NCBI GenBank assembly: GCA_054772095.1
Contig: BAAGAE010000033.1
Coordinates: 4,128,326-4,192,325, forward strand
Origin: Chamberlinius hualienensis
Lineage: Eukaryota
Reading direction: 5' to 3'
Length of the DNA stretch: 64,000 bases
Every line of letters begins with the position of its first letter. Within the stretch, counting starts at the first letter, position 1. The notes under the pieces are model-generated. The model made no database searches and had not been told where the DNA came from. It saw only the letters and a program-made list of their open reading frames with translations. Both the position numbers and the translations under genes were made by a program. Below, one piece after another: positions 7,975-33,987 of the stretch.

Positions 7975-10900
7975 ATGTTTCGCTCTAAGCGAAACGCTCT
8001 GGTAAAGCGCTTGTGGAAATCAAGAATTCGCGCCGACTCCATTAATAATAGTCATCATCGGCGTCAACAACAAGGATCTGATGAGGAGCATAATGAAACC
8101 CAGGGTTCGTTTGCGAATAGCACAACTGCACAAGAACAAAGTGACGGGGCGACGGTGGTGGTGGATATGGAGTTAAAATCGGTGGCTCATTCCTTACTAA
8201 AACGTTTGAAAGAAACGCAGTTATCTTTACTAGTCGAAGCTGTGGAGAGTCGTGGTGGAGGCCCTCCAACAGGCTGTGTCTTGGTGCCCAAAGGTGATAT
8301 CAGAATAGGACGGAGGATTGTTTTGCCCCACGTTTTGTGTTGTCAACTGTGGAGATGGAGTGATGTCACACAACCTTTTGAGCTTAAACGTTTGGCATGT
8401 TGTAATACTCCACTGGATGACCCAGCATATGTTTGTTCTAACCCATACCATTGGTCAAGACTGTCACAACCAGGTACAAATACGAATTGATAATTAATCA
8501 GATTCACGATCGAAATTTGTTGTGAGTAGATCTTTTACTTGTACATGCATATAACTTGGACATTCGAAGTATCGAAAGTTCATTCATTTCGATATACTGT
8601 ACAGCGGTAGTTTTGTTCGAGATTAGAACTCAATTCCGAAAGAGAAAAACCTTGATTTTTAACGGTTATACAGTAGTTAGCGGTGAACACTTGAAGTACA
8701 GTAACCAATATTCTAGTTGTTTTTGTATTAACAATAATAGTATGAATGGTATTCTACTGCCAATATAGTTTCCAGTGTCCTATAACTGTTTGACAGAGTT
8801 TGGACCAAAATTAAGGTTGGAAGTTTAAGACCTAAATGTAAGTTTTAAATCATTTTAAAAAATCAGGTTAATTTTAAATCCTTCACATATATTTGTAGTA
8901 ATTTATTAGCCGTGGTAGTTTAGTTTATTAAAAATGTATCGAGATGTCACGTTTTTATTAGGTTGGTCACTATCTATGTACTATGTAAGTTTAATTGGAA
9001 TTTTACCAACAGCTAAACTTAGCACTAACTTGTTATCAAGATCTGCATCAACGCTGCTTTCGCACGTGTCCCCTAAATTACAGTACGAAATTATTTTGAA
9101 ATTTTAAATTTTCTTGGAAGAGCACGTGCAAATTAATGGTTCGATTCAGGGAAAATACTTTGACGAACTATAAATATAAATAACATGTCAACGACTAAAT
9201 TGCAGATCGAAACAGTACTTGTATTCTATGGCAGTGGACATAAAAGATGATTTATTAACTTTTAGCTGCGTAACATTCACGAATAATAGAAAAACTTAAG
9301 TTTGAGGTTTAATTTTATTTCAAAGGACGAGTTAAATTGTTATCAACAAAAATCACTGTTGATTAATTTTTGTCAGCGGCCATAACGACGTCATGTCAGT
9401 TCACGTACTGCTTGTTTCGATAACGTGGTTGTCTATTTATACGACACTCGGTATAATAGTTAAAAATGCGTTTCATAACCTACAAGTTGAATGTTATTGT
9501 ATGCGACGTAATCCCCTTTACTTTAATAATTGAAATTTACTTTGTTGTTATACATGTCATTCTGCGTGATAATAGGACATATTATTATGGCTAACTTAAT
9601 TGTTGACCGGTGTGTTCTATTTAATTTAGATTAGGGGAGAAAAAGTTTGCCGATTTTAGATGAAAAGTTTTTGCCTTCTGCATATGAACTTAAAAGGGTG
9701 CAGAGACAAGAAGTTTCTCTCGTCTTCTCTATTCTGCATTTATTTTGACTGGTTTCATTGATAAATGGAGAATTTGATTTTCTTAAAACAGCGATAACAT
9801 TTTTTATTTCGGATGAAATGTGATCGATATTAATTTCCCAAGTTCGAAGCTAACAGATCAAAGTTGATTTTATTCGCATATCGGTGAACTTCCTGTTCTC
9901 GTATTCTGTTTGCTAGATAGTAGTTAAATGTTTTTCGTGACATATTATTAGATGACACCGTTTATACGAAATTATGTGTTGTACCGAGGAGATAGAGGGA
10001 GAAAGAGTGAGACAAAAAAAACGAATTTTTTAATTTTTGTGAAGCATAAATAGTGGTGTTTGTAGATATGAAGGGCGCTGTAGACTTTTGAGAAGGCGCC
10101 GTGTCTACTCTCTGGCGTCATTCAGTCGCTTCTCTTGCGAATGAAGGGCGAGTGAAAGAAGGCGTCTTGGAGGCTGAACAAAGAGAGCGCGAGTGGGTGG
10201 CCTATGCTTATGACCCATAGGGAAAGGAGATGGTAGGGAGGGTGAATAGCAAGGGGTCACGTGACCCACCCCTCGCAACAATAACAACTTTCGACCTTAA
10301 ACAAAATATTTGAGAAACGGCACACTAGGCAACTTTTAAGTGTACGGTGTAAATAGGACTCCAAAAAAAAATAAAAATATTCGTTATCTCTACTGTATAG
10401 CATAATTTTAAAGAATTTGTTTTTACGAAACTTTCATTATATGAAGTTACTTATTCAGGGAAATGTTTTCTTAAGAATAAACAAAAATCGGCTGATGCTT
10501 TGCCTGACTTATCTTGGCTCCATTCAAACCACTTGTAATTCGTCTACTGTCGGTGCTGATTTTAGTTTCAAATTTGAATAAATTTCTCGAAGATGTTTGG
10601 AAAAGTTCTAAGAAATTGAAAATAAAGTTGAAACATCTTATTTCTAGTAAAATCTGAATTTTCAGCGTTTCACATGTCGGTGTTGTGGTTATTTTTTTAA
10701 ATGAAATTCTGAAAAGTAGGTTAAATGTGGTGTATCAGGTTGAAAGGCTAATTTTGATCGGTCTCTTTTCGAAACTTTAATCAAGTGTTGTAATAATAAT
10801 AGTATTTACTAAATGAACTTTGTTCTGTTTTTGTTTCGCAGAGTCTCCACCACCGTACACCAGGTGTGCTCTCGATTGGATAGCGCCAGAAGGTGAGTTT

Positions 10901-12579
10901 CTTGCGTACCTACAGACCCGCAATTTCAAACAATACACACGCAATAAAATACAAAAAAATAAAATATTATTTCCGTGAAATTTTATTTTTAAACTTGTTG
11001 GACGTACTTTTCGAAGTTAAATGGAGTTCTTAGTAAGAAATTAAATTAGTTCGAGCAGTACAAATAATTTCATTGCACTGTTTGTAAATTATTTTGGAAA
11101 CTTATTTTGTCAATTTCAATGTAAAAGTAATTTTTTTTATTAAAGTGCAATGAAATGTGATGTGTATTATGTTTGCAAGCGAATGTGTGTAAATTATGCA
11201 ATTATATTTAATTTTAATAATATTTTTGATTAATTTCAGATGTAGGAGAGTTAGATCCGGTGTCAGTGGCCACGGGTGGAACCAATCAGTTCGCTTCCTA
11301 CAGCAGCAATCCTCAAGGTAAAGATAACAGAATAATACCATTTCTATACACAATACAAAACGTTTGAAGGACCATGTGAAGGGTTTACTTAAAAATTCTT
11401 TTGAAATCTCTCTCCTGAACTTGAAAAGGAACTGCGTGTAGAAAATGGTCTTTTCCGACATTGTCATTTGTAAATAATAACTATAAAGGTGAGGTTGAAT
11501 ATAGATTTACATTTTACAGATAGTCTGAGATAGAGCTTGTATTTTTGCTTATTTAAGAGATGAAAGGTAGAGAATACAGGGTGAATACACAACTGCCTTT
11601 AGTTTCTTCAAATCGTAATAATGTTTGAAGTTCTCCCCTTCTTTTATACCGAGTTCTTGCCTCTCCCTCACTACGAAACTCACCTTTTAATATTTTGTTC
11701 ATAATCAACTTTGGGTTCATCTTGAAAAGGAGAAAAAATATTTGCGGGAGAATGAGATTGATCGTTTTGTTTCTCCTGGATATGTCCTCCACTTCACTTT
11801 GGAATGCCAATTTAGTTCCCCTTGAGTAAGGGGAAGAGGAGTTACTTAAGTTTTTTTTTTTCTCTTCACCACCAATACCACCTTCTCGCGCTTGTCCCCC
11901 CTCGTACTTCTCCTCCGAGTTTTTCTTCCCTTTTAAAGTTTATTTACATTCGTCTGAAGTAGAAGAAAAGCCTCTCTCGGTCATTGCAATTAAAAGAAAG
12001 CGACTCTCAAAAGAGCAGACGTCATCTTAACTTCTTAAGGCTGAGCCTCACGACGCACTCGTGTGATCTAAACTATTGTTTTTTTTTCTTCCTGTAAAAT
12101 TAGTTTTATGACAGGGTTAAAAATATTCAATAAGCTTCATTTATTTTTGTTTAAAATTACATACTTTTTTTAAGCTAGTATAAAATGGGGGAGAAACATC
12201 GGTGGGTCTTTTTATTATGTTCAGTTTATAAGAGAAGATTGGAACTAAGCTCCGTTTTCAAGGGAATGCGCAAAGGGTGAGAGGGGAAAGGGTCGAATAC
12301 GTCAAGGATTTCAACTTGTTTATATAAATTAATAATTTTGTCATCTACAACGATAGCACTTTGCGGAATATCAAACGATTTGATCACGTGATCTCCATCT
12401 TTGTATTTCCACTATTACAGTACGTGTTCAATTAGTGACATTACTACTTAAATAACCTCTACGAATATTTTATTGACAACATGATGCGCTATTTGTGACC
12501 AATGTCGAATACTGATGTAATTTCGTACGTGTAACATGACCTCATAATGTTGGCATTTTCAAGACTTTAATTTTTTTTG

Positions 12580-12611
<32 letters not shown>

Positions 12612-15600
12612 GCTTTTCTTCCTCTTAAAGCCAAGTTCCGGTTCTAACGTCATTTGTGAGCAAATTTTTATTTACTAGACAAAGTCTATTTTGAAACTTT
12701 GTACGCTTCTATTGTCGTCATCACTGGCAATGACAGCTAAGGACCGTTCCGATAGCAATCTTGACAAAAAGCATATGGTTTCCAAACATAGCGTCACCCA
12801 ACTTTTCAGCTAACTGCTTCGTCTTTTATTGATTGATCGATCTGTAGTGTTTGATATTGATTGTTGTTGGAGTGCTTTGAGGAAGCGCACAAAGGCTCCA
12901 CAAAACAGATGATCAGTGTAAAATCTGTTCCATCCGTGTAAATCAATGACAGAACTCATTTCGGTAAATTTTTCACTGCGTATTTTAAATTGAATATCAA
13001 AATCGAAGTGAAGAAGGAAGGGATAATTCAATTTTCCGTCTGATTTATTAGCATAGACTTTTATTATGCGCGCAAAGTATACCTGTTATTTAGTTTTGAT
13101 TAATTTTTGGACCTATATACAGTATAATATAAATTTACCCTCCTTCCTCCGAAAAAAAAATATTGAAAGACTGAAAGTCTTGCTAATTAAGACAGTTGTT
13201 AGAGCCCCCTGGTGAGTAGATGCAACAAACTGTACTTCCCTTCGCTCTGTTAAATAGCCGCCTGAAGGGATTTTACCTTTGCTGAATACACATTGGCCAC
13301 CATGGGGGAAAAGAGTGGTTGGCAATGGTGATGATGATGGAGGATTTATAAAAAAAAAAAAAAAAAAAAAAAAAAGTATTTTCTCTCATTATTGCTGCTT
13401 TTTTTTCTCTTTCTGTTGATGCGTTTAACGTGTTTCGATGCAAGTGGCACTAAAAATCAAGTATGAAATAACATTCCTACCAGTGTAAACTGGCAATTTT
13501 GGAAGAATTTAGCTTGCGCTTTTCACGCTGTTGTCTAAATGACTACTTATACTCGGAGCCACTTAGTAAAGGCATATGTAAATTTATCATTGACTTTTTG
13601 CCTTTATAAAGTGGCCCAGTGCATAATAATTGTTGAGTAAAACCTTGTAATAATTTTTAAGTGGCTGTTTTTTTTTATTGTGCTTTTACATAAAATTACA
13701 AATTAGCAATGAATCAGTAGAAATTGTTAGCTTGGACATTGAATGCTATATTTATTTATAAATAATTTGTTTATCAATTTAACAGTTTGTTACGTAACTT
13801 CATACTATATTACTGCGATGTGTGCATTTTATCATTGTGATAAAAATAACTTTTAGAAACTTTTTGTAAAAGTTTAATCTTTGTTAATTTGTGTGTAGGC
13901 AATAGTATCTGCAGCCAGTATAATTAACTACAGTTTGTGTGTGTGGTTGAGATTTTATGGTTATGTTGTGGTTAATGCGGTGAACACCTAAATTAGGTTC
14001 ATGTCTTGTTTGGTATAAGTTTGTGTTTTAGTTGAAACATCGACTTTTTTCTCCCTTTTTTATTTATAAAGTGCAACTTAAAAAGGGAAAGAAAAGGCGG
14101 TGAATGAAAATTGGATTTAGTTGTTTGCCGCCATTGTAGATGTATCTGTAGAAGCAAATTGATTCGAAGGGAAAAATTGGCAGCCAAACATGGCGTCAGC
14201 GACTTTTAAGAGTGGTTTTTATTAATGGTTTTTGGGTTGCGTCGCCTTTAGGTGGCGTCGAATGGACAGACATGGCTTTCATTTACACACGAACATATAT
14301 AAGCTTGTTTGTATTGGCGTCCAGCAGGCACCCACCCACTCTGAACGCAACGCCAGCCAATGCTTTATTGCAGATACATATGACGCGCCAACAACAAACA
14401 AATTGCAAACAAAAACATCTAAAATTGGATGAGGGAAAAAAGTTTTTCAAATGCGATTTCCTGTTGACGACGCCACTGAGTTTTCGATGACGTCACATCT
14501 GTCGTCTGGCAAGCGTAATTTGAAATAAATTCAACGCGATTTTGACGCCATCGGAACCACTTTATGGAAACTTTTGGAAGTTGGTGCGTTATTTGCTTGA
14601 CGTGCTGTTAGCATTGCAAATTTATCGTTGAGGATCAAATAGAACTTTTTGAAAGCTTTATTTATAATGATTTCTCTAGATCATTGCCATATTAAAGCTT
14701 TTTATTTTTTTTATAAAATAAGTCGACGAAAAGTTAATTACTCCGATAAAAAAAAAACATTGCTTAAAACGATCGCCATTTATGTAATGTGAGCAAAATG
14801 ACAAAATTTCATCTTGTTTGCGATCAGAATTTTTAGTTATTGGAGATAACGATGGATTTATGATGGGAACATTGAGTGTGGGTGTTGGGAGGTCAGTGAT
14901 TACCCATGTGACGTCGTTGGCGTTTATATTATTGTGTGTGGACAGCGAGTCGTCGTTGCTGCCGCCACCAGTCCTCCTTCTCACTTGCTTTTTGGCGCCG
15001 ATTTAGATGGCATTTGGTGATGCTGGCGGCTGATGACGCTCATACTGGTTTTACAAGCGCTCAGCCATCACCATGTCACGTCGACACCATTGAAAATTGA
15101 TTCTTAATGAGTTGGTTTCGTGTCGTCGGGGTGTCGCTTAGTTAAAGTTGAAAGAAAAGCATTCAATAAATATTTAACAGTTTAAGCAATTGTGAAATTA
15201 TTCTGATTATTTTGATCTTTGCCAATCGAGTGTTGAGTCTGTAGATTTTATGTGAACTTTTCTCCCTCTAAACTTGCAGTACGTAAAACTTGGTAAATAA
15301 AAAAATAACAATCGAGTTTTTCGACGACCGTTTACAATTCATATATACTGAATATGTGTGGTTTGTATGAAAAATCGTATATAAACGCTCCGGTCGCTTG
15401 GCGACCATTCCGAGATCAGTTAACAATGGTCGGTAGTTAGTAAAGGTAACAACCAAAAGAATCGTTGTATAAGCAGAAAGGGGGAAACGGTCTGCATTCA
15501 TTTTCAAAAGTGGAATCACTTTTTAATGAAGTTGCTTTTGCTCAAGTGCACTTCCATTGTGATTGTGAAGTGGAGGAAAGTTTTTTTTGTTATTATTTTG

Positions 15601-17546
15601 AAAAAAAGAAAGAACACGCAAAGGAATTTCGAGTTGAGGCCTATCCAAGCGACTCCCTGTAGGACAATCCAATCATTCACAAAATGCTTGTTTTTCCCCC
15701 ATTGATGCTTTATTCCTCTCACTAGAAAAGTTGTTATTCTATCATTGAAGGCCTGCTATTGATTGTAAACAGGGAATCCGTGTTCGGTTGTTGACAAAGG
15801 AATTTTAAAGGATTAAATAGTGGATTATCTTTTCTTCTTTTTTTTCCCGCTCATCCTTTCTCCACTCCTTCTTACGTTATAGGTTGTCATCATCTACATT
15901 TTCGACGTGACCCACATAACTTCTAACAATTTAGTTCGGATTTAACGTTGCGTTTGAAAGGGTTTAGGAATTCACTACTACAAAATTATGTAAACATTAG
16001 GATTTCGAATTATGTGTTAACGTACGGAATAATAATCAGCAATTCACTCAGTAGTCGTATCGTGGCTTTATTTCGTAACAAAAAAAAAGTTTTTCAGTGC
16101 GTGCAATTTTAAATTTGATAAAGTTTTTAATGAGTTTAAAAATTTCTGAATAGTTAAAATATCGCTTACGACATCGTAATGTTAGGTATTTTAATAATTT
16201 CTATGCTTAAAATTGGTTGTTGATGTAACAGTGAATAATATAATGGCGGCCATGTGGAATGTAGAAATTAAAACTTTTAAGCTGAAATTTGTGTGATGGT
16301 ACCCTAGTGTACAAAAGGATGGGGTGGAGTGGCCAAATACCTGTTTACCTAGCTACCACCTCATCATTCTCGTTTTTTCTTTACGTCGGTTTGTTTTGTC
16401 TTCAAACAAGTTTTTCTTTCTCCTTTATTTTCCTCTTCAAGTGTTTTTGTCTTTATCATCACTCAAAGGTATTCTAGATTGTAATCGGAGAAGAAATCTT
16501 AATAGTCGTTGACCACTCCTTCGGCTATTAACTCCACCTCTGTAGACTCATGTTTAGATCGAAACAGTCAAACAAACGTGCGTTTAAAACATATTTTCAG
16601 TTGAACGGATTGACAATTGGATTTTTTTGTGAAAATTATTCGATTTTTATACTCATTCCCCATGTTTCTAAGATTCTAATTTCGAGTTTTTACAGTGCAG
16701 TATTTGGGGAATTAAAAGATAGTTTTCTTATCTAATCGTTATATTTGTAATCAGTCAAGAGTGGGGAATTTTTTTGGCTGAGGAATTTGGTCTTAGCCGA
16801 GCTTTACTCTAATTTTACAAACATTGACACGAGTCTTCTAAAAATAAATATTTACAAGTTTTACAATAAAAAAAAATAAAAATAGTTTTAACTGCTTTTG
16901 TAATTAAAATGTTTTTTTTTTTTTTTATTTATTTATGTATTTTTTTTTTATAGGTATAAATGGTGAAATTGAAAATTCGAAAAACTACTGGTGTTCCTTG
17001 GCCTATTGGGAGCTGCGAACTCGGGTTGGGCGACTTTTTCCGGTGCATAAAAACATGATCAATGTGTTTTCCGATCTTCCTCACGGTGAAGGCTTATGTT
17101 TGGGAACTCTTGCCAAACAGAACCAAAGGATCAGTGAATCTGTTCGTCGGACAAGAGAGAAAATTGGACTGGGTCTTAGTATAAGCAACGAACCTGATGG
17201 TGTTTGGGCGTATAACCGATCCGATAACGCCATATTTGTGAACTCGCCTACCTTACAACCCCCTTCTCAAACTTTACATGCTCCATTATCAAGACCATCT
17301 TTCACCGTATACAAAGTCCCTCCCGGTTACTCCATCAAAGTTTTTGACTTTGAAAAATCTCGTCTGTACCAAAAGATGGACAAAGAACTGAGTAAGAAGA
17401 ACGATGGAGAAGCTACCACCGATGGTCCTTTTGATCCCAACTCTGTCAGAATAAGCTTTGCCAAGGGATGGGGACCCAAATACTCTAGGCAAGTCATCAC
17501 TTCGTGCCCTTGTTGGCTGGAAATTCTTTTGATTCCACCGAGATGA
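7975..17546 (+). CDS. Smad6/7: Inhibitory Smad (Smad6/7 orthologue). CDS join(7975..8473, 10842..10892, 11240..11317, 16954..17546), about 406 aa. An alternative in-frame upstream ATG at 7753 would add a 74-aa Pro/Ser-rich extension.
   Basis: Exon 1 encodes [17 protein letters not shown] (compare vertebrate Smad7 MFRTKRSALVRRLWRSR). It also contains [29 protein letters not shown] and [10 protein letters not shown], which are hallmarks of the I-Smad N-domain. Exon 2 encodes ESPPPYTRC, the PY motif. Exon 3 encodes ...[10 protein letters not shown]. Exon 4 encodes an MH2 domain ([17 protein letters not shown]... [13 protein letters not shown]), close to Smad7 WCVVAYWEEKTRVGRLY...CPCWLEVIFNSR. 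All junctions are GT/AG with phase 1: 8474 gtacaa; 10839-41 cag; 10893 gtgagt; 11238-39 ag; 11318 gtaaag; 16951-53 tag. The summed CDS is 1221 nt, divisible by 3. Confidence 0.9.
10256..10265. promoter_or_regulatory. Perfect palindromic CLEAR/E-box motif GTCACGTGAC in I-Smad intron 1, inside a GC-rich island (about 10060-10290).
   Basis: Read directly: gcaaggGGTCACGTGACCcacccc. Related palindromic CACGTG sites lie at 6259-6266 (aTCACGTGAt) and 12376-12385 (gaTCACGTGAtc), plus CACGTG at 9066 and 9124. Confidence 0.35.
12577..12612. repeat. Poly(T) homopolymer of about 36 nt in I-Smad intron 3. A poly(A) of about 25 nt lies at 13351-13376.
   Basis: Direct reading of the sequence. Confidence 0.9.
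13530..13612. repeat. Copy of a short dispersed repeat family. A second copy lies at 60455-60512, and a partial match to its 5' end lies at 60161-60180.
   Basis: 13548 tatactcggagccacttagtaaaggcatatgtaaatttatcattgactttttgcctttataaag against 60449 tatactcgaggtcacttagtaaaggcacatgtaaattcgtcattgactttggcctttagaacg, about 88% identity over about 60 bp. The gtctaaatgact motif recurs at 13530 and 60167. Confidence 0.5.
14200..15100. promoter_or_regulatory. GC-rich island inside the 5.6-kb I-Smad intron 3. It contains a perfect CRE, TGACGTCA, at 14486-14493 and further TGACGT(C) sites at 14905 and 15070. Candidate intronic enhancer or alternative promoter.
   Basis: Base composition shifts clearly relative to the flanking AT-rich intron. 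Overlapping junk ORFs occur on both strands, which is typical of a GC island. The motifs were read directly. Confidence 0.3.
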
Positions 17547-20500: not shown

Positions 20501-21502
20501 GGATCTAATTTATTTGGTTTTTTGTTTGTTTTAGGAACTGTAAAAGGAAAGCTGACGAAGATGTGCGAATTGAGTTAAATAAGTATTTTAACCAACTATG
20601 TGTCTTTAGTCATGTGTAAGCACTTTTTTGTGGAACCGGAACAAGTAGTTGCTTCACTATACTAAGACCGAATCCGGAAATAGAAGTGACGGCACGGCCC
20701 AGATGAGCGTGCTTTAATATCAAATGAGGTGCTGATTTGAAAAGTGATCCAAGTGACATTTAGATAGTTTTGTGTAAATCGCAATTAAAGTTCAAATGTT
20801 AATTTAAAAATCTGTGATAGCTGAAAAGATCTACCCCCTACGTAGCGCAAGTAGTGTAATGACATTGTATCACTTAGCCCAATTCTGTTCTTTTAATTAT
20901 AATTATTAGAGAAATACAGTAAATTTTATCACACCATTGCAGGCTGTATTTCATTGGTCAGCCATGTCTTTTAGGGGGAGGGTTTTATATTTTTGAGTAC
21001 GGTATCACCTAAATGCACTCGAAGAGTGTCCATAAGGTGATTTATGGTCTTTGACATTTTTTTTCTTCTTCAATTACACAGTAAGTGTCCTGACAGCAGT
21101 CTCGAACTCGCAACATCTGCTTGCTATATGCCGCGTAGGAGAATTATTATTTGGGATTTCACGACTACAGGAATCACCAAAATCAGCGCTCACGATCATC
21201 CTGTTGGCTCTATCGGGGTTGTATATTAACTAACTATAACTAGTATTAGTTAGGAATGTTATTATAGTATTAGTTCGATATGTAGAAGTCCAAATGGGAA
21301 GAAGTTGTTGAGCTGTATAACTGATAATTGTGTGGCTATGTGGGATGTTTTACTCGGTGAATGTAAACAGATATACCGATTTTACACATTCGTCCAAGAT
21401 CTGATTAACAGCTTTTACTTGGACTTAAGGTCAGGGACGTCATTTCAGTGTTTTCCAGAACGGACAAAACCAAAAATTTAGGGGTTTTTTAGTTTTCTTA
21501 TA

Positions 21503-21645
21503 AGATGCAGGATTTAGCTGTTTTGGAGGAAGTGTTACGAATGGTTTTGAAAATAATTAATTCATGTCTGTGTAATCGACTCATTCACAGTAATCATCTT
21601 ATTTACACACTTCTATACAAGAGAGGTCTGGAGACCGATTTATGG
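21503..21645 (+). pseudogene. Inverted partial copy of the 3' exons of dymeclin. Exon A of the real gene is fused to the end of exon B, and the fragment lies about 6 kb from the real exons on the opposite strand.
   Basis: The + strand at 21507-21627 reads [46 protein letters not shown]|gtaaac. This is about 94% identical at the nucleotide level to the reverse complement of real exon A (27540-27690) plus the last 25 nt of real exon B and its GTAAAT donor (27296-27332). Frame integrity is lost after KR. Confidence 0.8.
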
Positions 21646-24371
21646 TAAACAATTGGGCATTCGTTTCGTAAACTGCATTATAACAATTGACATTGTAAGT
21701 TATTAACCAGGGCTGCTATATTAGACAAAATTGTATACCGTTAATGCTCGCATTGAGTACGTGGTAATGCAGATCAGTCATGACATCGAAACATGCTTAT
21801 TGTATTACTGTATCTAATATCTTTAACATTGATGATACAAATTAATACGCGAAAGAGATTTATCGGTAGTTCAGATAGACAGAAAACGGTTTACATTAAG
21901 TTTAGTTTAGAACTTAAAGCAGCATACTATATACTTGTTTTGTGAGTGCGTGCAGTACACCCATCTCAATACAAAGTTACAAACAGTTGAAACATTCAAA
22001 CAGCGAGAGATGGATCTAATCACAGCAGAAGATCAGTTGTTAAAAGTTTACACCGACATACATTTCCTTTCCATTAACGTTTGATGGATTTCTGGATATC
22101 TTTTGGTTTGGCATATCCCCTTCGTTATAAAGGTAAACGAGAACATACGAAGTAAAACGAATTATAAGGAATAGTGGTAGGGCAAACGATCACAAATAAT
22201 GAATTCGTTTATTAATCATCTTTGATGGAGCACTGTGAATAATGGGTTTATGAATGTAGTGCTACTTCCGGGTACGGCAAGTTCCCTAAATCGAGCCTTG
22301 AAACGACCAAAAAACCGCCCTCTCCTGGTGACGTAAGATAAAGGCAGGAAAATGTTGATATCTCGGAAAATTAATTAAGATATCGAAAAAGTTCTTTTAT
22401 AATTAGCTTAATGCATTCAATTTTTCGTCTAGATATCCATAAAAAAAAAGTAGCTCAATTTTTGATAAAGTGAGAATGCCTTTCTTTGTTTTTTTATAAA
22501 ACCCAAAACAAATTGAAGGAAATAGGTGTTCCAAAACGACTAAATTTGGAAATTTTATAATTAAGATTCCGTAGGTAATTTGACGTAGAAATATCCAATA
22601 AAATACAGTGGATACCTAAATGTTTAGTCTTTTTTTTGAAAACGTGGAGAAGGCCTTTGGGTTTTTTCAAAAAATTGGAAAAAAAATAAAAGTTCTCAGA
22701 AATAAGTGCCTGGTCTAAATTATTCATTGCTGATAATTGTAGCTACTTCCGATTCCTGCAACAGGTCCAAATAGAGCCTTGAAACAGCAAAAAATATCAA
22801 TAGCTATATAATGCCATCTATAAAACTATTTTTAAAATTTAATGTAAACTAGAGGAAGAAGTTTAATGACCAATTATTCAAAAAAGTTGTACACAATATT
22901 TTGGCGCTTGTATTAATGTAAATATCCGAAATGTTTTTTTATTAATTGTAAAACATGATACAATTCATTATATAATATGACTCAATCATGCATCGGCAAA
23001 CTTCTAATTTATTTATTATATTTACTGGGTGAAATTTACTTTTAATAAAAATTTTCTTTTTTAAAAACAATTATATTAAAAGTAAAGCGAGAGTGTAAAA
23101 GATAACTAATAATATTGTTTGCATAATATTTTTTTTTAAATGTATGCAATCCAATGTATACATTTAATACAATACAATGTAGGAGTGATTCGAGACTGCT
23201 GCTGGACATTTATTTCCAAAAAATAAATGTCAAAATGTTGGAAAATCAAACGTGCCGAAGACCACATTGATAACTCTAGAGTGGCATATGTAAAGGAGCT
23301 ATACTCCTAAAAATCTAAAACCCTCTAGCTGAAAGACATGGCTGACCACGAAAGACAGCAAGGGGATTTTAGCTTGAGCTCCCAACATCCAAGTATTATT
23401 AAATAGCTAGAATTTTAGTAATTAATTTAGTTTTGTGACTTAAAAAAAATAGATGGACTTTGACCTTAGTCTAAAGTCTAATTTTTGCTAAGTGATGTTA
23501 AGTTGTGCCAGGTTTGGACTTTGACCTTTAACCATTGGACTAAGGTCCAATAGTCTACACCTCATGTCTAAACCTCATAAAATCACCTAGCAAAAATTAG
23601 ACTTTTGAATAAGGGCAAAGTTCAAAGGTCAAAGTCCATCTTTTTTTTTTTAATACAATTCTTTTTTTTTTCAGTTACTAAAATAAATTCTGAAATCTTA
23701 GCTATTTAATAATACTTGGCTGTTGGGACCTCAAGTTAAAATCCCCTTGCTGTCTTCCATAGTCAGCCACATCTTTCAGCTGGACGGTTTTGGATTTTTA
23801 GGAGTATAGCACCCTTTACATATGCCACTCTAGTATGTGGTCGTACATGGTTTTACACCATACATGATACGTTTGTTTTTCCAACACTGCGACATTTATA
23901 TCTTTGGAAATAAATGTCCAGCAGCAGTCTTGAACCCACGTTCCCTGCTTTCATGCTACTGCTTTAGTGCGCTCGACCACATTTCTAACACCCTTCTAAT
24001 ACCGTCTTAACTCCTACATAAGAATTGGATGGCAAACAATAAACTTTTATAATCTTTTATACTCTTGCATTACTGTACTTATAATAGAATTGCATATAAA
24101 AAAGAAAATTTTTATTTAAAAGTAAATTTCACCCATTTATATAATAAAGGCATTAGAATTTTTTCGATGCATGATTTAGTCATATTATTTAATGAATTGT
24201 ATCATGTTTTAGCTATTTACATTTTTTCCTGTTTTAAGTCTCTATTTGTAACAGTTGCAGGAACCGGAAGTAGCTACAATTAGCAAAAGTGAATAGCTTA
24301 GACTCGCATTGATTTAAAAACCTTTTTAAGTATTTCTGAGAACTTTTGTTTTTTTCCATTTTTTGAAAAAA

Positions 24372-24451
24372 CAATACGTACCTCAATTTTTGGCCGCTTT
24401 TTGAAAAAACAAAGGCTTTTTCAAAAAGCGGCCAAAAATTGAGGTACGTAT
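24372..24451. repeat. Perfect hairpin with a 36-bp stem (aatacgtacctcaatttttggccgctttttgaaaaa / tttttcaaaaagcggccaaaaattgaggtacgtatt) and an 8-nt loop, inside the right palindrome arm.
   Basis: Read directly. The second half is the exact reverse complement of the first. A diverged homologue of the hairpin lies in the left arm at about 22620-22700. Confidence 0.85.
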
Positions 24452-24849
24452 TTTATTGCATATGTAGACATAAAATTAAATCCAAAAGCTAATTATAAAA
24501 TAAATTTTTCGATATCTTAGTATTCGAGATATCGCCATTATTCTGCCTTCTTTTTTTTTATTTCACAAGCAGTGGGAATTTTTTGGCCGTTTCAAAGCTA
24601 TATTTAGGGATCTTGGAGGATCCGGAAGTAGCCGAAATTCACATAAATGAATAATTCAGCTAAAAAGGAAAATGCATACTGTAACATTCATAAACCATTC
24701 ATAGTGCTCCATCAAAGAGGATTAACTATGGAAACACACTTCCAATCAAGGACGTCATTGTGTATCAAGGCATATAAAGTTAAGTTAAGATTGTGTATAG
24801 CCCCCAACCTGTAACCATTGATATACCGGTAGTCCATGAAAATAAGTAC

Positions 24850-25400
24850 AGTGATACCTCTTATAACGAGTTTAATTCGTGACTAACTCTTGCTCGTTAT
24901 GTGAAACAATTTTTCCCATAGGAATCAATGTAAAACGCGATAATGCGTTCCATGACAAAAAAATGCAAATTTGTTTTTCATATGTAACGTTTCAAATACA
25001 ACTAACATTAACAACAAACTGTTAAAAACTTAATTGTATTTGACTGTAACGCTGTTAAGAGTCATTTGTTTTTGCCGTTGCTTCAAAATTTGGTGAAAAT
25101 GTAACACAGCATTGTCTTTTCATTTTGTAGTGTCTTATGGTAGTCTTTTTTTTTGATTTTTTCTTTGGGGACATTTTTGCAAACGTTATTCAACTAAAAA
25201 CTCTAATGACTAAATTTAAATGTAAAAAAAAATTTCCTTTTTCAAAAAATTGTGTGAGAATGGCGCCATAAGTCTCGCGAGTGACAGAAAGTGGGGATTT
25301 CCTCTGCCAAAATCACTCGTTATGTGGAATATTGCTCGTTTTGAGAGCAATTTTTGTACAATTTTTTTTTGCTCGTTATGTGGATTACACGTTATTAAGA
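24850..25400. mobile_element. MITE-like insertion of about 550 bp, present only in the right palindrome arm. It is bounded by imperfect inverted termini: tacagtgATACCTCTTATAACGag at the left end against the reverse complement of CTCGTTATgtggattacacGTTATTAAGAGGTACcactgta at the right end.
   Basis: Left-arm homology stops exactly at this point: left 21940 ...atactatatac|ttgttttg against right-rc ...atactatatac|agtggtacctctt. The internal ctcgttatgtg motif is repeated four times. Confidence 0.4.
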
Positions 25401-27093
25401 GGTACCACTGTATATAGTATGCTGGTTAAGTTCTAAACTAAACTTAATGTAAATCGTTTTTTGTCCATCTGAACTACCGAAAAGTCTCTTTCGCGTATTA
25501 ATTTGTATCATCGATGTTAAAGCTATTAGATACAGTAATACAATAAGCATGTTTCGATGTCATGACTGATCTACATTACCACGTACTCAATGCGAGCATT
25601 AATGGTATACATTGTCTAATATGGCAGCCCTGGTTAATAAATTATAATGTCAATTGTTATAATGCAGTTTACGAAACGTACATACAAACGTTTTCGTTCA
25701 GATAATTACACAAAATGGTATCTGCAAGTTAACTGTGAACATAAATAAAAACGCTTATGGCCATTTATTAAAGTAATCAAATCATAATTATAATAATGAA
25801 TAAATAAAAAAACGAATGCCATTCCTTTGCTTTGATTGCCTTTAAACCTTTTGTCCACAGATTTTCACAGCAATTACAATTTTAAACTGCAATTTAAACA
25901 GTCCCAATTCTCGATTATTCCCACCAAGTTCCTCACAAATCAGTTAGAGCTGTTACACCCAAATACATCATGAATTTCGTTTGAAAACAAAATAAAAATT
26001 ATAAGAAGCAATTAAAATGAGTTATACATAAATTAGATGATCATAAAGAATATGAAATGAATCAGACCGATTGATATTCGGGAATGCAACGGGATTCACA
26101 ATAAAAATGAAACGAATAGTTTACATGAGGTCAACAAAAAGGAGAACATTTACACGTACAAGTACAGGTATCGGTACAACCATATGTTTTGGTTATTTAC
26201 ACTGAATACTTAACAATAAGTGATGATAAACTATATTCTGTAGTTCTTTTTTAAACTATAGGCGGTAGTATAATTCTCGATCTCCCCCGTGAATCACGTC
26301 AGTTGAATGTACTTGCAAATTATTAATTCATAAAGCACAACACCTCACAAGCCAATGATGTAAAAAATCCAGTGATTTTTGTACAAAATATGTATTCATT
26401 CTTAAATTCGAATAAATGCTATCTGAAAAAATAATTTACACCTATAGTCTATAAATGTAATTTGAATTCATAAAGTAAATAAAGCCATAATTTCGTTGAC
26501 TACTAATATAATAAGCTAATATTTCTATATAATTGTTTCTTTTGTGGCAAAACGTTACAATCACAATACAGTATCAGGGGAGGATAAATACTGAACCTAG
26601 GAAAAAGTATTAGCAAATTGCAGTCACTTTTTCCCATTGATCTCACTAGGAGGTTTTTTCTTAGGCGTTCTAAACCAACCAAACTTCAAACGCATTTATT
26701 AAAAATATACCGTGCAATAAATCACAGTGAAAGGTTTCGACTATGGCAAATAATGTGAAACATAACGTCCTAATTCTGTACAAAAAAAAGCCATTTATTA
26801 GTCAATAGCAACGATTTAAATAATTCTATAGTGATTCAAGTTTACATCATTTGTAAATATTTAAAGTCGATCTATTTCGACATTAGATTAAACACTTTAA
26901 ATTTACCCTCGAAAAGTTTTTAAATATTGTCGGCAAAAACGCCATTAAATCAACCAAGAGTGCATGTATCGACTAGCACCCAGATGCCAAATAATAATTA
27001 TTCAGTAATACAGTATTGCATTACTTAAAAGTGCAGTATCCTTCCACAAGTAACATGTTCAACCAGAAAGCAGTTTTTATTTTAAAAACAACG

Positions 27094-29861
27094 CTATTGA
27101 GAAAAATTATTTTTTGAAGCGTTAAACAGCCTAATGTTTTCGGCGTTCCAGTACAAGTTGGAGGAGTTGTATACAAGTGACCAAACATATGGGATAAAGA
27201 ACTCTTCAGGTTGATCTTCTTCTACATACTTAAACTTTAAATCAGGGAATTTCTATAATAAAAATGCTACCGGTAATTGTGATGACCCACTAGAAAATAT
27301 GCCCAATTATTTACCATAAATCTGTCTCCAGGCCATTGCATCGAGCCTTCCTGAATAATTTGAAGCACATCATCTGCGGACAAATCTTTATTAGCAGCCT
27401 CCAGTTTGCTAGAGAAATAAGTGAGTACCTATACCGATAAAAATTGATCACACAAGAGAGCATAAAAAAGATTTTATTAAATGTCCACTAACTGTTTCAA
27501 TGTTTTGGATGATGTCCTGAAACGTCGGATGATTTCTGAACTGCTCAAAACACTCTCTCTTGTATAGAAGTGTATAAATAAGATGATTACTGTGAATCAG
27601 TTGATTACACAGACATGAATTAATTATTTCCAAAACCATTCGTAACACTTCCTCCAAAACAGCTAAATCTTGCAACTTAAAAAAAAAACAACAAATTGAT
27701 GCCAATTTTTAAATTGCACACTTAAAATGTACCAAGTCAGCAGCCAGATTTTCTTCGTCTGGATCTTGCGACTCAGTGGCAGTTTGCAGCTGTTCCATTG
27801 AACGATGGTGTCTCTTGGCCAAGCTTTCAAAAAGTCCAACTATCCTCTGAGCCACATAAACATGAAGATCTCGAAACTGGCTGGACATATTTGCTAATGC
27901 GGCCAAACAGTTGGTATGCAAATATTTATCCTTTAACCCAGGCGAATAAGATTATAAATCATTTAAAAGAAATTTTTAAAAATAAAATGTACCCGCATTC
28001 TAGTCATGTTAAACTGGATGGTTCTTATCACTACTAATATCAGAAGCCCACCTAGAGAGACTGACGAAAGACTTCGTTCTGTGTACCACGTGACTCCTTT
28101 TAAAACCTAAATAAGATTATATGACCATTTTGCTTTACCAAAAAAAAGTAATAAAAAATTTGCTACCATACCGATTGATGAACTGCCTTGTTAAATAATT
28201 CATCTTCTGAAAGAATCAATAATATTATAAGGGCCATATAAATGTGATGAGAATTGCGATCGTTAGCTTGATATAAAATTTTTAGTATTGGTACAACCTA
28301 TAAAAGAAATTGTATTTTTATACAAATATTAATATAAAAGCATGTTTGCAAATGCCAACCAACCAGCTCTTCTATATCGGCACGAGATAATATATATGTT
28401 CTGAAATGTTGATTACGATGTAATAGTAAATATAGCAGTAGAGTTGTTTGATCATCTTTCATTGTGCTGCATAATGTGGTAAAAACTTGGGAGTAATCAA
28501 TTTTAAATGTAGCCACCGCTTGCGTTGGACTACCACTACTCGAATCCTGCGAATTAGTAAACGAAAATAGTGCCTGTCGATAAGGGTTGTGGCAAGATTT
28601 TTCGTTTGTACAATGATTTGTTAAAACCAGAATCAACAAAAGGCTCTGATTGGCAAGTAGAGCGTCATCATGCTGCTCACTGTTGGGACGTCCTCTGTAA
28701 CCTAACGTCAATATACTCCATATTCCAGCTATAAATCAATAGCTTATTCATTAAATGATTTGAATTTCATATTTTAGGTTACGGCATTACAAGCAAGACC
28801 AAGCACAAAACTTCCACTTCCAGCATTTCTCTGAAAAGTTGGTGGGCATTTCAGCTGAAGAATATAATTATGAAGAAGCGTTTTCATCAGAAGGCACGCG
28901 TGAATTGCACTGCAAATCAATCGGAACAATTAAAAACTTAAAAAAATAACTAGCAAGTAACCCGCTACAATTTACCACTTTCCCATCATCATCGATTTAT
29001 AAATATGCGATTTGACAGCCAAACTTTGAGTGAACATGTGCACTGATAGCAACACTAATAAAGCGTTGATTGCTTCTAAATGGATAGCATAAGTAATTTC
29101 TCTAAAATAAAATAAATAAATGTTAATGGGTATATATTTGCATACATATTCGACCAAAGTCAAACATATTATTACACTACTGGGACGTCGACGAGCAGTT
29201 CCAATAAAGCATTCTGGAATAATTCCAACATTGATTCTGGTTCTTCAGTTACTTCTCCTACATTTTAAATGTAAACATCTCGACAGCAAAAAGATATTTG
29301 CAAAGTAATACCATCTTTGGAGGTTGAAGAAACTTGAAGCTGTTTAATAAAACTGTCTTCCGTAATGGTCTCTAAGAAAAATTTGCAAACACAACGCAAT
29401 ATGAAAAGAGCATTGTATGTCTGCCAGATGAAAACAGAGCTTAAAAATTGATATTTTATATTATTTTTAATAATCTCAGCAAAACTAAATTAACCAGTTA
29501 CTTGAAGCATTGAGTGGACGTCTTCAGCTCGCGAGCTCGAGTCAAAAATACTTTTAAAAGTGAAGCTACATTTCCTGTTTGTAAATTATTTGTGAGCAGA
29601 ATTTTGCATAAAGATAGGGTGCTCTCTTCTAATAAGCGATAATCAGCGCTGTTGGTGAAATGGATTTAACATGATACAATTAGATCATTTTAGAGCATAC
29701 GTTTTAATTTCACGGTACCTATTCTGTGGAGGGAGAAAACTAAATGACAACAGCTGGTTCCAAAAAGGGTCATTAAACGAAATAGCTTCTCGTCCAACAA
29801 ATCTTCTCAAATATTCATTATCCTTAAGTTCTCCTATACTTGTGCTACTGTTTGCACCCAT
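27094..29861 (-). CDS. DYM: Dymeclin (DYM) orthologue. It is a compact gene of about 10 or more exons. Mapped exons (minus strand, + coordinates): exon 1 29718..29861 ([42 protein letters not shown]...); an exon within 28972..29163; an exon within about 28366..28711 (...[13 protein letters not shown]...[10 protein letters not shown]...[28 protein letters not shown]); an exon within 27709..27921 ([19 protein letters not shown]...); exon A about 27450..27675 ([21 protein letters not shown]...[10 protein letters not shown]); exon B 27315..27407 ([31 protein letters not shown]); last exon 27094..27252 ([43 protein letters not shown]...*).
   Basis: Each exon translation matches vertebrate dymeclin segments, for example MGSNSSRIGDLPKNEYL...[28 protein letters not shown]...[49 protein letters not shown]...[26 protein letters not shown], and [30 protein letters not shown]. 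The N-terminal MG... fits an N-myristoylation start. A polyA signal (AATAAA on the minus strand) lies at about 27076-27081. Confidence 0.85.
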
Positions 29862-31558: not shown

Positions 31559-33987
31559 TTAGTAGTCTTTATCGTCCTCCTTTGCAGCCATAAAAAGTTT
31601 CTGAGTAGCAACTGTTACTGAATCTGAAACATCAAATTTGGGTTAATTGCAATTAATTCTATAAAGTTGAAAAAATAACTAAATTTGATTAGACTTGACA
31701 GTTTGAAATTGAAATTCAGCTACTTCAGACTACACGTTACAATTTGTGTAGTATTCGATATTAGCAGATTATCATTCAATATTTTTACTATTCTGATAAT
31801 GGCAATTATCTGCATTATTTATTGCAGACAAGAATAATCAAACTAAGATATGAATATAAAAAGTACCCAAAAATCTTAATAGTCCTGCTGGTTTATTCGT
31901 CCAATATATAAAAAGATAATAAGCTGGTACACCAGTTGCAATGATAGCCAACCCCATTCCTACTGTCAACGGTTCAGCATATAACGGCAAACAGATCAGA
32001 AATGCACAAATTATTAAAAATGTGATTGGCACCACCGTCATTACCTGCAACGAATACTTGGTTAAAAAATGTATACTTTTAAATAATTCATACAAACAAA
32101 CTTTAATTGGACGTTCTAAATTGGGTTTCTTCCATCGAAGATACAACAATCCGGCCACTGACACAGCAATAAAAAATGATTCGACAAAACTACTGTAATT
32201 AATCAGTACAATAATATCGCCAGTCACCAACATAAGTAATGACATGAGTCCCTAAAAATTAAAAAAAATTAAAAAAATATATATCAGACTAAACATGCAA
32301 GTTTATTGTATACTAAAAATATTAAAGCTGGAGTTGGAGTTAGCTTAGTCATGCTTATCATAGCAAGGCTGGAAGGAAAATGCCCTTGACGTGCTCCAAC
32401 AAAACAAATTCTAAAAGTAAACAAAACCGTTCAATTAATTTATTTTAATTAGTGGTACTGTACACCCAACATGGAGTGTAGCATAAATAATTGTAAAAAA
32501 AAACAATACTAATAGTTCCCTATTTTAACTAGCTATTTATAAGCCATAAACCTGATGTTTAATAAATTACCTGGCTGAAGTGAATATGTGGACCGTTAAG
32601 CCTCCTATTGTAGAACCAGCAACACAAACTGGAATAATCCACCATAAATATGACGGTAGCTTTTCACCAAACGTCTAAATAATAAAAAAGCAGCTAAATT
32701 TCAACATGTTTTAAAATTAAACCACCAAATATTACCACTGCTACAGCTGCAGAAGAAAGAACTTCATACGGAGATAATAGAGTAAAATAAGCTACGTTGG
32801 CCAAAATGTAAATACCCGTTATAATCGGCATAGAAATCCATATGGCACGAGGCAAATTTCTGTTAATCACTGATTAATGAAAACGTTGTCGTCAATTTAA
32901 AAAGTATTTAATATCGAAAATAATTACACGTAAGGATCTTTCATTTCTTCCGTGACAAAATTTAAGTAATTCCTGTTAGCAAGGATAAAAGAATATTTTT
33001 AGTTGTCATATCGATACCACATATACTGTATATAAACCAGGAACTTACCATCCTGTAAACGAAAATATTCCGGAATAAAAAGCCACTGATATGCTTCCAG
33101 GATCCGTGATTGTACCATGGAAGCTATTGTGAAAGTACTCAGTTTTTCCTATTCATCGTGCAGATAAAAAACGTTAAAATTTTTTATTATAACATTGCAT
33201 TTCTAAAAACCTTGTCCAATATAAACCATGCCAGCTATGATGATGAAACCCAACGCTACAATTTTGAAAATCATAAAGCCGTCTTGTAGTTTGGTAGTCC
33301 ACTTTACGTTATAGCAATTCAAAAACGTCAATAAACCTAAGTAATTAAAAATATGGTTATAGTAAACATCAAACGTTTAAACATTTACGGTAACAATACT
33401 TAAATTTTGAAATTTAAATGTACTTAAGTAATCGATAATTACAATTGAAACTTACAAATAACAATTGCTGCTATTAACCGCACTGCTTGATCAGGTGGTA
33501 AACAAGTTCCATAAAATGGCTGCAAAATGTAGTTAGCAAATGTCAAAGCCGTAATGGCGTTAGTGCAAGGTATAAACACCAAACTGGCCACCCAAAGATA
33601 AAGAAAAGCAGGTAATGCGCCAAAAGCTTCTAGGATGTAGACATAGTCTCCCCCAGATTTTGGAATTGTTGTTCCCAACTCAGCATAACATAGAGCTCCA
33701 AGGGTAGATAAAAGCCCACACAAAACCCAAATGATGAGAGATAATCCAACAGATCCAGCTGACTTAAGAACACCCTTAGGTGTGATGAAAATACCTGAGC
33801 CAACAATTATGCCCACAATAATTGCTACACCCTCCAACAAGCCAATCTCTTTTTTCATCCTGACAGAAGTTTCATTCTGATTTCCAGATTCTTTATTCCG
33901 CTTGTTTAAAGGTTCTATAACCGACAATTCGGTATCTGGTTCCATGATAGTCTTATTTGATATTGAATCTGAATAAATATAAAACAT
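31559..33987 (-). CDS. SLC7-family heteromeric amino-acid transporter light chain (LAT / y+LAT / b0,+AT-like), with about 12 or more exons. The start is at 33987 or 33945 (MEPDTEL...). The last exon is 31559..31623 (...[20 protein letters not shown]).
   Basis: Minus-strand ORFs carry several transporter signatures. ORF 33439-33987 has [88 protein letters not shown], the canonical SLC7 TM1-TM3 signature. ORF 31838-32245 has ...ELERPIKV / [22 protein letters not shown]...[11 protein letters not shown] 56-nt intron (donor aag|gtttgt, acceptor ttgcag|gta) interrupts that ORF at about 32050-32105. Additional exon-sized coding blocks at 32560-33320 were not individually mapped. Confidence 0.85.

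Follow-up and report, generated by a model that had tools for sequence, protein, structure and literature searches.

A patchwork inverted repeat downstream of dymeclin in Chamberlinius hualienensis combines an old hairpin-like repeat with a younger inverted copy of the dymeclin 3' region and a small transposon

Results

An inverted repeat lies between dymeclin and a SMAD6/7-like gene

The window, i.e. the whole stretch of 64,000 nt that was analysed, contains no Ns and includes an intergenic region of ~9.5 kb between two convergent genes, a SMAD6/7-like gene on the + strand and dymeclin on the - strand. The dymeclin gene proper is intact, and an AATAAA is present 15 nt past its stop codon. In searches with exons of the two genes, dymeclin yielded only fragmentary matches with at most 65% identity, and an exact look-up of the SMAD exon gave no record. 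The best match of the SMAD6 exon (87%) was in Logan run SRR29905063, and the nearest named ones were from Strigamia (61%) and Limulus (56%), which fits a probable arthropod source. Using BLAST of the window against itself, we detected an inverted repeat of ~4.2 kb (~21485-25693; centre ~23540) downstream of the dymeclin 3' end. In this comparison, 22949-24211 matched its own inverted sequence with 663 bits (E=0), and inverted matches were also obtained between 21662-21934 and 25410-25678 (E=1e-114) and between 21485-21625 and 27555-27695 (E=8e-53). An inverted repeat centred at ~23540 had been proposed in a previous sequence-only reading of this DNA and is borne out by these matches (E=0 to 8e-53) in sequence free of Ns. 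The arms are collinear over ~72% of their length. When the DNA directly left of the palindrome was searched for a gene, the ORFs at 21044-21481 gave no Pfam match.

The inner part is a diverged palindrome bounded by TTAA

The inner part of the inverted repeat is a 2.5-kb palindrome (22212-24725), here referred to as P, that is bounded by TTAA on both sides (22212-22215 and 24722-24725). The left arm of P (22212-23500, + strand) begins with TTAA and contains two diverged direct sub-repeats as well as a dispersed-repeat fragment (23189-23359), of which a solo copy of 180 nt is found at 20943-21122. The right arm (23578-24725, - strand) terminates in TTAA and has a private hairpin with a 41-nt stem (24368-24457). 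A 75-nt motif occurs twice in each arm, and each arm consists of two diverged direct units. The spacer between the arms had been thought to be near zero; however, the central 77 nt (23501-23577) are self-complementary at only 30/77 positions, which is the chance level, and the only self-complementary part is a 16-nt mini-palindrome (23536-23551).

Identity between the arms of P is 77-79% over ungapped columns and falls to 62-68% when gaps are counted. Their inner blocks have 897/1144 identical positions (K2P 0.25-0.27; 31 gap openings), and even the best ungapped inner segments reach merely 81-86% identity. By contrast, the termini of P are sharp, with 27/29 identical positions in the terminal 29 nt compared to 78% inside. 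As DNA, P is predicted to fold into a single long hairpin (-367 kcal/mol). P has no coding capacity.

Using nhmmer with profiles of every block, we found no further full copy of P in the 64-kb window, and only the fragment at 20943-21122 was recovered. Pattern scans of metagenomes for the dispersed-repeat core and the 75-nt arm motif gave no match, and no homologue was identified for the pseudo-protein of 32 of the 34 listed arm ORFs; the nucleotide and protein collections searched do not include the source species. The idea that the dispersed repeat is a tRNA-derived SINE was rejected, as neither ARAGORN nor Rfam gave a tRNA match. Similarly, a miRNA reading of the hairpin at 24375-24450 was rejected, as all matches were well under the gathering score (44 vs 100 bits).

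P resembles FB-type and other long-TIR non-autonomous transposons in that it consists almost entirely of two long inverted arms made of direct sub-repeats, lacks coding capacity, and has sharp ends with better-conserved termini; long TIRs composed of sub-repeats, which are a feature of foldback transposons, form most of P. It differs from these elements in that its arms are just ~78% identical and in that no second copy was found in the 64 kb or in collections without the source species. Moreover, the target-site duplication is ambiguous: TTAA is itself palindromic and, therefore, may belong to the inverted repeat, in which case it is indistinguishable from a target-site duplication. The TIRs of piggyBac elements conventionally have the form CCC...GGG, and the TIR of P does not match this convention. 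On the whole, the inner palindrome resembles a repeat of the foldback type that is assembled from sub-repeats and a fragment of a dispersed repeat.

The outer part is an inverted copy of three pieces of the dymeclin 3' region

The outer layer (21485-21941) is 91-95% identical (K2P 0.05-0.09; 418/445 identical positions in sum) to three collinear right-hand pieces, i.e. 24839-25693 minus the MITE described below, 27299-27333 and 27555-27695. The leftmost part of the copy (21485-21625, + strand; source 27695-27555) comprises 20 nt of intron 3' end and 121 nt from the start of exon A, and is 92.2% identical to its source over 141 nt without gaps, with the dymeclin sense sequence on the + strand; the source piece (27555-27695, - strand) spans the intron 3' end together with the 5' two-thirds of exon A (27675-27493). 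It is followed by a copy of the exon B end (21626-21660, + strand; source 27333-27299), which comprises ~19 nt from the end of exon B and 16 nt from the start of the intron that follows, has 32/35 identical positions (91.4%) and is fused out of frame to the preceding piece; its source (27299-27333, - strand) runs from the end of exon B (27428-27315) into the last intron. Finally, a copy of intergenic DNA (21662-21941, + strand; source 25693-25411 and 24846-24839) has 95.2% ungapped identity (K2P 0.05), includes the empty site of the MITE and continues to be homologous for 8 nt beyond the TA target; the main part of its source (25411-25693, - strand) lies 1.4 kb past the dymeclin stop codon.

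The copied pieces form a collinear series of three in a common orientation, each lying farther from P than the one before. The three internal junctions of the copy were mapped to within 1-2 nt; microhomology is 0-2 nt at 21625/21626 and at 21660-21662, and a T-tract obscures the outer junction. The inverted copy is close to its source (24839-27695), and the spacer between the two consists of P and 383 bp.

The sequence-only reading had recognised dymeclin exon fragments at the left end of the repeat. This is confirmed by the 92.2% and 91.4% identical pieces as well as by the 47-aa ORF of the copy (21505-21648), which matches positions 541-579 of the Pfam family Dymeclin (E=5e-11). The same reading held that the duplication captured part of dymeclin and that the copy omits 1.6 kb with the last exon. 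Consistently, parts of the penultimate exons are present, the intron, exon sequence and the 1.6 kb are missing, and the last exon of dymeclin (27252-27097) is inside the skipped 1.6 kb. A retrocopy origin was rejected since 20 nt and 16 nt of intron are kept and one junction falls within exon A (27555) rather than at the exon A donor (27493). Because intron bases are retained, the copy is of DNA and not of mRNA origin. As judged from its sequence, it is best read as a frame-shifted dymeclin pseudo-exon.

A MITE interrupts only the right arm

The earlier suggestion that one arm alone carries a transposon-like insertion proved correct: a Tc1/mariner-like MITE of 562 bp (24849-25410, + strand) is present in the right arm only. 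It has TIRs of the form CAGTGRTACCTCTT(A)ATAACG, i.e. CAGTGATACCTCTTATAACG and CAGTGGTACCTCTTAATAACG, and is flanked by a TA duplication (24847-24848 and 25411-25412). The left arm has the empty site, ...CATACTATA-TA-CTTGTTTT, with a single TA and without a footprint, and this site matches the right-arm sequence on either side of the MITE. In its length, its ~20-nt TIRs starting with CAGTG, its TA target duplication, its lack of ORFs with homologues and the clean empty site in the paralogous arm, the element is like Tc1/mariner-derived (Stowaway-like) MITEs; it differs from them in that it is seen as one copy in the window.

The two layers differ in divergence and are separated by unrelated sequence

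Divergence differs significantly between the inner and the outer layer (Fisher p=2.7e-15), and substitutions differ 3- to 5-fold. The layers are separated by 270 bp private to the left arm (21942-22211) and 113 bp private to the right arm (24726-24838), which are unrelated to each other. Local alignment of the left-only 270 bp with the right-only 113 bp, the MITE and the skipped 1.6 kb gave scores at the shuffle level. Two such unrelated stretches are expected if they represent the original flanks of P. Contrary to the earlier claim, homology between the arms is not continuous, and the arm identity of 92-94% reported earlier applies to the outer ~460 bp only, the inner ~1.3 kb per arm being 77-79% identical. 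The 3- to 5-fold difference and the unrelated sequence between the layers also speak against the single duplication of uniform age that was previously assumed. The locus as a whole is made up of three components, namely an old and decayed hairpin-like repeat, a younger copy, in inverted orientation, of ~460 bp of the dymeclin 3' region, and a small transposon.

Discussion

The locus is best explained as a non-coding composite structural relic for which no function can be demonstrated. It looks like an ordinary genomic scar without signs of function and points to no new kind of biological system.

With about even confidence, we favour a history in which a foldback-like palindrome was already present before a fold-back or template-switch event placed an inverted duplicate of the dymeclin 3' region beside it. 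The starting point would be the 2.5-kb TTAA-bounded P, whose structure is evident and whose origin as a foldback-type repeat is putative. A break or a stalled fork just left of P could then have been repaired by fold-back or template-switch synthesis, with the hairpin-prone P drawing its two flanks together. The 3' end would have copied the opposite flank in inverted orientation while heading away from P, taking up 24839-25693, 27299-27333 and 27555-27695 either with two forward template jumps or with later deletions. Rejoining of this end at 21484/21485 would have given rise to the younger outer repeat and the frame-shifted pseudo-exon. Later, the Tc1/mariner-type MITE entered a TA of the right-hand original only; this step is shown by the TA duplication and the empty site in the left arm, and the preceding repair event is inferred. 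The two age classes (K2P 0.05-0.09 vs 0.25-0.27) argue for this history, as do the unrelated stretches between the layers, the sharp TTAA ends of P, its repeat-built arms and its folding into a single hairpin, and the collinear pieces in the same orientation that move away from P with microhomology of at most 2 nt. By contrast, the copy is not flush with P and 113 bp beside P were not copied, which argues against simple fold-back priming at P, and the minimal microhomology at the junctions counts against this history in that it does not pin down the repair pathway. The divergence gap could partly reflect gene conversion between the arms or a raised mutation rate in the hairpin-prone core.

Foldback inversions close to breaks have been documented to be favoured by long hairpin-forming sequences (Li, Putnam and Kolodner 2020, PMC7467729), and fold-back generates inverted duplications with spacers (Hermetz 2014, PMC3907307). 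The locus shares with fold-back inversions (PMC3907307; PMC7467729; ODIRA, PMC4689423) an inverted copy beside its source, little or no homology at the junctions and a spacer between copy and source that holds a hairpin-forming sequence. It differs from them in that the copy is tiny (~460 bp kept), interstitial and without loss of distal sequence, is patchy, being composed of three pieces with 1.6 kb and 220 bp left out between them, is evolutionarily fixed rather than de novo, and does not abut the hairpin. Gene capture by Pack-MULEs or Helitrons likewise fuses fragments of neighbouring exons and partly retains introns. Upon inspection by eye, neither MULE TIRs with a 9-bp TSD nor Helitron 5'-TC...CTRR-3' ends were recognised; moreover, all fragments stem from the adjacent 6 kb and are collinear, and, therefore, local repair fits better than transposon capture.

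Two other histories were considered. The order of events may have been the reverse, with an outer fold-back duplication that had a spacer of ~383 bp and a foldback-type transposon, P, that later inserted into a TTAA of this spacer, P being a non-autonomous element with intrinsically diverged arms. We consider this order possible, if unlikely. The TTAA at both ends of P, its well-conserved termini, its sub-repeat architecture and its dispersed-repeat fragment all fit such an insertion, and the unrelated stretches of 270 bp and 113 bp would be nothing more than spacer; however, palindromic TTAA looks the same as the end of an inverted repeat, no other copy of P is present in the 64 kb or in the searchable collections, from which the source species is absent, and insertion into 383 bp of a ~9.5-kb intergenic region amounts to a coincidence of ~4%. 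The model of the sequence-only reading, i.e. one inverted duplication of ~2-4 kb that included part of dymeclin and was followed by indels and uneven decay, seems to us decidedly unlikely. It would explain why the arms are collinear across ~72% of their length and carry numerous private indels, and the loss of 220 bp and 1.6 kb from the copy is plausible as pseudogene decay. Nevertheless, it requires a 3- to 5-fold divergence gap between contiguous parts (p=3e-15), that all three separate outer pieces happen to be the young ones, and that the 270-bp and the 113-bp stretches are both replacements by unrelated DNA.

An assembly artefact, whether from a chimeric read, a hairpin read or the inverted joining of haplotigs, is unlikely, and we give it hardly any weight. 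Palindromes are a known class of artefact, and in a very heterozygous species the outer divergence of 5-8% and the presence or absence of the MITE might conceivably be allelic. However, an assembly hairpin has near-identical arms without private variation, and the arms here are 78-95% identical with a private MITE and unrelated segments. Moreover, divergence between the arms is 5-25%, dozens of indels are private to one or the other arm, there are no Ns, the left copy lacks the last exon of dymeclin and has exon fragments joined out of frame and, thus, is not an allele, and the inner arms are much too diverged to be haplotypes. The sequence-only reading is supported in its preference for a genuine old inverted repeat over an assembly hairpin.

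It is very improbable that the locus functions as a hairpin or antisense locus in which read-through or antisense transcription of the left arm gives dsRNA and siRNAs that regulate dymeclin. Uninterrupted matches of 39, 27, 23 and 19 nt do persist between the exon A copy and the real exon, the duplex has a predicted energy of -190 kcal/mol over 121 nt, and known hpRNAs stem from inverted duplications of their targets, often mixed with TE sequence (PMC10317233). As in Drosophila hpRNA genes, an inverted duplicate of part of a coding gene lies amid TE fragments near a transcription unit (PMC10317233); however, both arms of an hpRNA are target-derived and highly complementary, and the locus has one such arm. 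Dymeclin sequence is confined to 21485-21660 and is absent from the right arm (23578-25693), and, therefore, the locus lacks the architecture of known hairpin-RNA genes. The partner of the copy would be dymeclin's own exon, 5.9 kb away and past the AATAAA; the hairpin-forming inner arms are 78% identical and unrelated to dymeclin; and Rfam yields only sub-threshold, generic hairpin matches. As for a long duplex within one transcript, the inner arms form a single hairpin as DNA but have many indels, and the outer stretches of 280 bp, at 95% identity, are separated by 3.5 kb. A nascent cis-acting RNAi trigger, in which the inverted exon A copy pairs with the real exon A to give siRNAs that tune dymeclin, is equally far-fetched or slightly more so. 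The gene itself would then serve as one arm, and the RNA would, just as doubtfully, come from dymeclin read-through or from antisense transcription that begins in the palindrome. Plants have analogues of hpRNA genes in Mu killer and in proto-miRNA inverted duplications.

Hairpin-seeded inverted duplication has been studied mostly in yeast, tumours and human copy-number disorders. If the two-layer history holds, the locus would be a small, fixed natural case, resolved to the base pair, in which a hairpin repeat seeded the inverted duplication of flanking sequence, and the duplication so seeded would also have made a gene-fragment pseudo-exon. For similar loci, divergence along a 'palindrome' needs to be measured block by block. 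For annotation, the dymeclin-like 47-aa ORF at 21505-21648 should not be named a gene.

The inverted repeat and its surroundings

The DNA of the window is metazoan, with a G+C content of 33% and zero Ns. It contains two convergent neighbours, a SMAD6/7-like gene (7753-17546, +; MH1 exon 7753-8490, last MH2 exon 16935-17546) and dymeclin (27094-29860, -), the latter with ORF pieces between 29860 and 27097 that match Pfam PF09742 at profile positions 1-47, 269-397, 477-542, 541-606, 601-645 and 648-673. The bounds of the 3' exons of dymeclin were read off the sequence, giving exon A at 27675-27493, exon B at 27428-27315 (donor ATG/GTAAAT, boundary after ATG) and the last exon at 27252-27097, with the stop codon TAG at 27096-27094 and AATAAA ~15 nt past it. 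The inverted repeat is located in the ~9.5-kb intergenic space, and its right edge lies 1.4 kb past the dymeclin stop codon. Over window positions 1-64000, the cumulative GC skew climbs to the palindrome and then drops (peak ~22000-24000); this turn matches the change from + strand to - strand genes, with the palindrome at the convergence point. Upstream of dymeclin and on the same strand, putative exons of an SLC7-type amino-acid transporter-like gene (31838-33987, -) were recognised by eye in ORF translations.

Human SMAD7 and DYM are likewise neighbours, on 18q21; given this pair, the adjacency seen here would point to an ancient microsynteny. No paper stating a SMAD7-DYM linkage came up in a literature search.

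In a self-BLAST of the window, 22949-24211 matched itself in inverted orientation (663 bits, E=0), as did 21662-21934 and 25678-25410 (93.8%, E=1e-114) and 21485-21625 and 27695-27555 (92.2%, E=8e-53) each other. A more sensitive search added the pairs 21625-21660/27334-27299, 22236-22536/24658-24361 (71%) and 22552-22806/24501-24210 (66%). These significant inverted matches bear out, in outline, the inverted repeat and dymeclin pieces proposed in the sequence-only reading. Just two further repeats in the 64 kb share these sequences or reach significance, i.e. a 180-nt fragment at 20943-21122 and an unrelated 70-nt pair. This direct pair (13547-13617/60442-60511; 71 nt, 84.5% identical, E=9e-14) is the one remaining significant repeat of the window and probably represents a further short dispersed element.

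An assembly artefact could in principle produce a palindrome; here it is very unlikely, because the arms have diverged, each has private indels, and the left copy is without the last exon of dymeclin. We conclude that the inverted repeat is genuine, old and composite, and that it carries a captured dymeclin pseudo-exon.

Anatomy of the inner palindrome

The inner palindrome, P (left arm 22212-23500, right arm 23578-24725), is bounded by TTAA at 22212-22215 and 24722-24725; homology ends exactly at both, and 27 of its 29 terminal nt are identical. The near-zero spacer described earlier is not what we found: the centre is a 77-nt spacer (23501-23577) with self-complementarity of 30/77, the chance level. 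Each arm consists of two diverged direct units with a common 75-nt motif, TAGCTACTTCCGG...GAGCCTTGAAAC...AAAAA, which occurs four times and within the window is confined to the P arms (chance expectation none). Moreover, each arm contains a fragment of a ~180-nt dispersed repeat (23189-23359, +; 23749-23930, -). These two copies are symmetric in the inner arms, and a solo copy lies 2 kb leftward (20943-21122, -; nhmmer E=9e-11); the repeat bears a B-box-like GGTTCGAGACTGCTG motif. Searches of the P arms and this repeat for tRNA and Rfam families gave no match.

As single-stranded DNA, 22949-24211 is predicted to form one long hairpin (-367 kcal/mol). A smaller, near-perfect hairpin private to the right arm (24368-24457; 41-nt stems, 95% complementary, 8-nt loop) gave several generic sub-threshold matches to miRNA-precursor models (best 44 bits versus a gathering score of 100), most likely reflecting hairpin shape alone. 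Altogether, the anatomy of P fits a foldback-type non-autonomous element and a very old local inverted duplication alike.

The outer layer and its dymeclin pieces

The outer layer (21485-21941) is an inverted copy of sequences on the right side, and its junctions were placed to within 1-2 nt by register-by-register comparison. Its dymeclin pieces are as described in the sequence-only reading: 21485-21625 corresponds to 20 nt of intron followed by 121 nt from the start of exon A, 21626-21660 to the final ~19 nt of exon B with 16 nt of the next intron, and from 21662 onward the copy follows 25693 downward. The first junction shifts the reading frame, so that the ORF of the copy, which matches Dymeclin profile positions 541-579, ends with GLETDLW* after the junction that follows 40 residues. 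In the exon A copy the first Leu codon has become ATG through a T-to-A change; the resulting ORF (21505-21648, +) comprises 47 aa, of which 39 are dymeclin-like, and ends in the frame-shifted tail; an automatic annotator could wrongly call it a gene. The coding part differs from the real exon by three synonymous and three non-synonymous changes, too few to test constraint.

The transposon-like insertion noted earlier in one arm proved to be a 562-bp Tc1/mariner-like MITE (24849-25410), present in the right arm only, with TIRs CAGTGATACCTCTTATAACG and CAGTGGTACCTCTTAATAACG and TA on both flanks. At the corresponding site the left arm reads through a single TA and stays homologous for 8 nt past it (21934-21941 versus 24846-24839). 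Thus, the left arm preserves the empty site cleanly, and insertion of the MITE most likely followed the outer duplication.

Two layers, probably of different age

Each homologous block was aligned separately, with identity taken over ungapped columns. The outer pieces were 92.2% (exon A, 130/141, K2P 0.083, no gaps), 91.4% (exon B tail, 32/35, K2P 0.092, no gaps) and 95.2% identical (intergenic, 256/269, K2P 0.050, two gap openings). By contrast, the three inner blocks were 77.3% (I1, 242/313, K2P 0.270, 11 gap openings), 78.9% (I2, 195/247, K2P 0.247, six) and 78.8% identical (I3, 460/584, K2P 0.251, 14), falling to 62-68% with gap columns counted; even the best ungapped inner stretches reach just 81-86%. 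The difference between layers (418/445 versus 897/1144) is significant (Fisher p=2.7e-15). The 92-94% arm identity reported earlier therefore holds for the outer pieces and not for the inner blocks. Nor are the arms reverse-complementary throughout: between the layers, the left 270 bp (21942-22211) and the right 113 bp (24726-24838) were no more similar to each other, to the MITE or to the skipped 1.6 kb than shuffled controls.

The 3- to 5-fold divergence gap, the low divergence common to all three physically separate outer pieces, and the unrelated DNA between the layers point to two events of different age. A single inverted duplication, as first proposed, we rate lower because it requires uneven decay plus two replacements. 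As to order, we favour that P was present before the outer copy. Long hairpin-forming sequences, proximal or distal to a break, promote foldback inversions (PMC7467729), fold-back yields inverted duplications with spacers (PMC3907307), and short inverted repeats that are interrupted induce strand switching at forks (PMC4689423). With P already in place, its stem may have positioned 21941/21942, the site of a break or of fork stalling, beside 24839; a 3' end would then have used the opposite flank as template, moving outward through 24839-25693, 27299-27333 and 27555-27695 in that order, before being rejoined to 21484. The skips of 1.6 kb and 220 bp may reflect either jumps along the template while synthesis was under way or deletions at a later time. 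Junction microhomology is at most 2 nt, too little to point to a specific repair pathway. A weakness of this fold-back model is that the outer copy is not flush with P. A serious rival is the reverse order, in which the outer repeat formed first and its 383-bp spacer then received P by transposition into a TTAA. The locus is a fresh instance of already known processes.

Possible effects on dymeclin

This analysis gave no sign of function for the inverted repeat, and the real dymeclin gene is intact. In known hairpin-RNA genes, target-derived sequence sits in both arms (PMC10317233), whereas here it is in the left arm only. Because the + strand of the exon A copy has the same sense as dymeclin, antisense RNA could arise only if the left arm were transcribed on the - strand; dymeclin read-through is one conceivable source and would have to run 5.5 kb beyond a poly(A) signal lying almost directly after the stop codon. 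Judged from the sequence, an antisense or RNAi role of the exon A copy on dymeclin is improbable. The idea is nevertheless testable, since the raw material exists: the copy and the real exon share perfect runs of 39, 27, 23 and 19 nt, with a predicted duplex of -190 kcal/mol.
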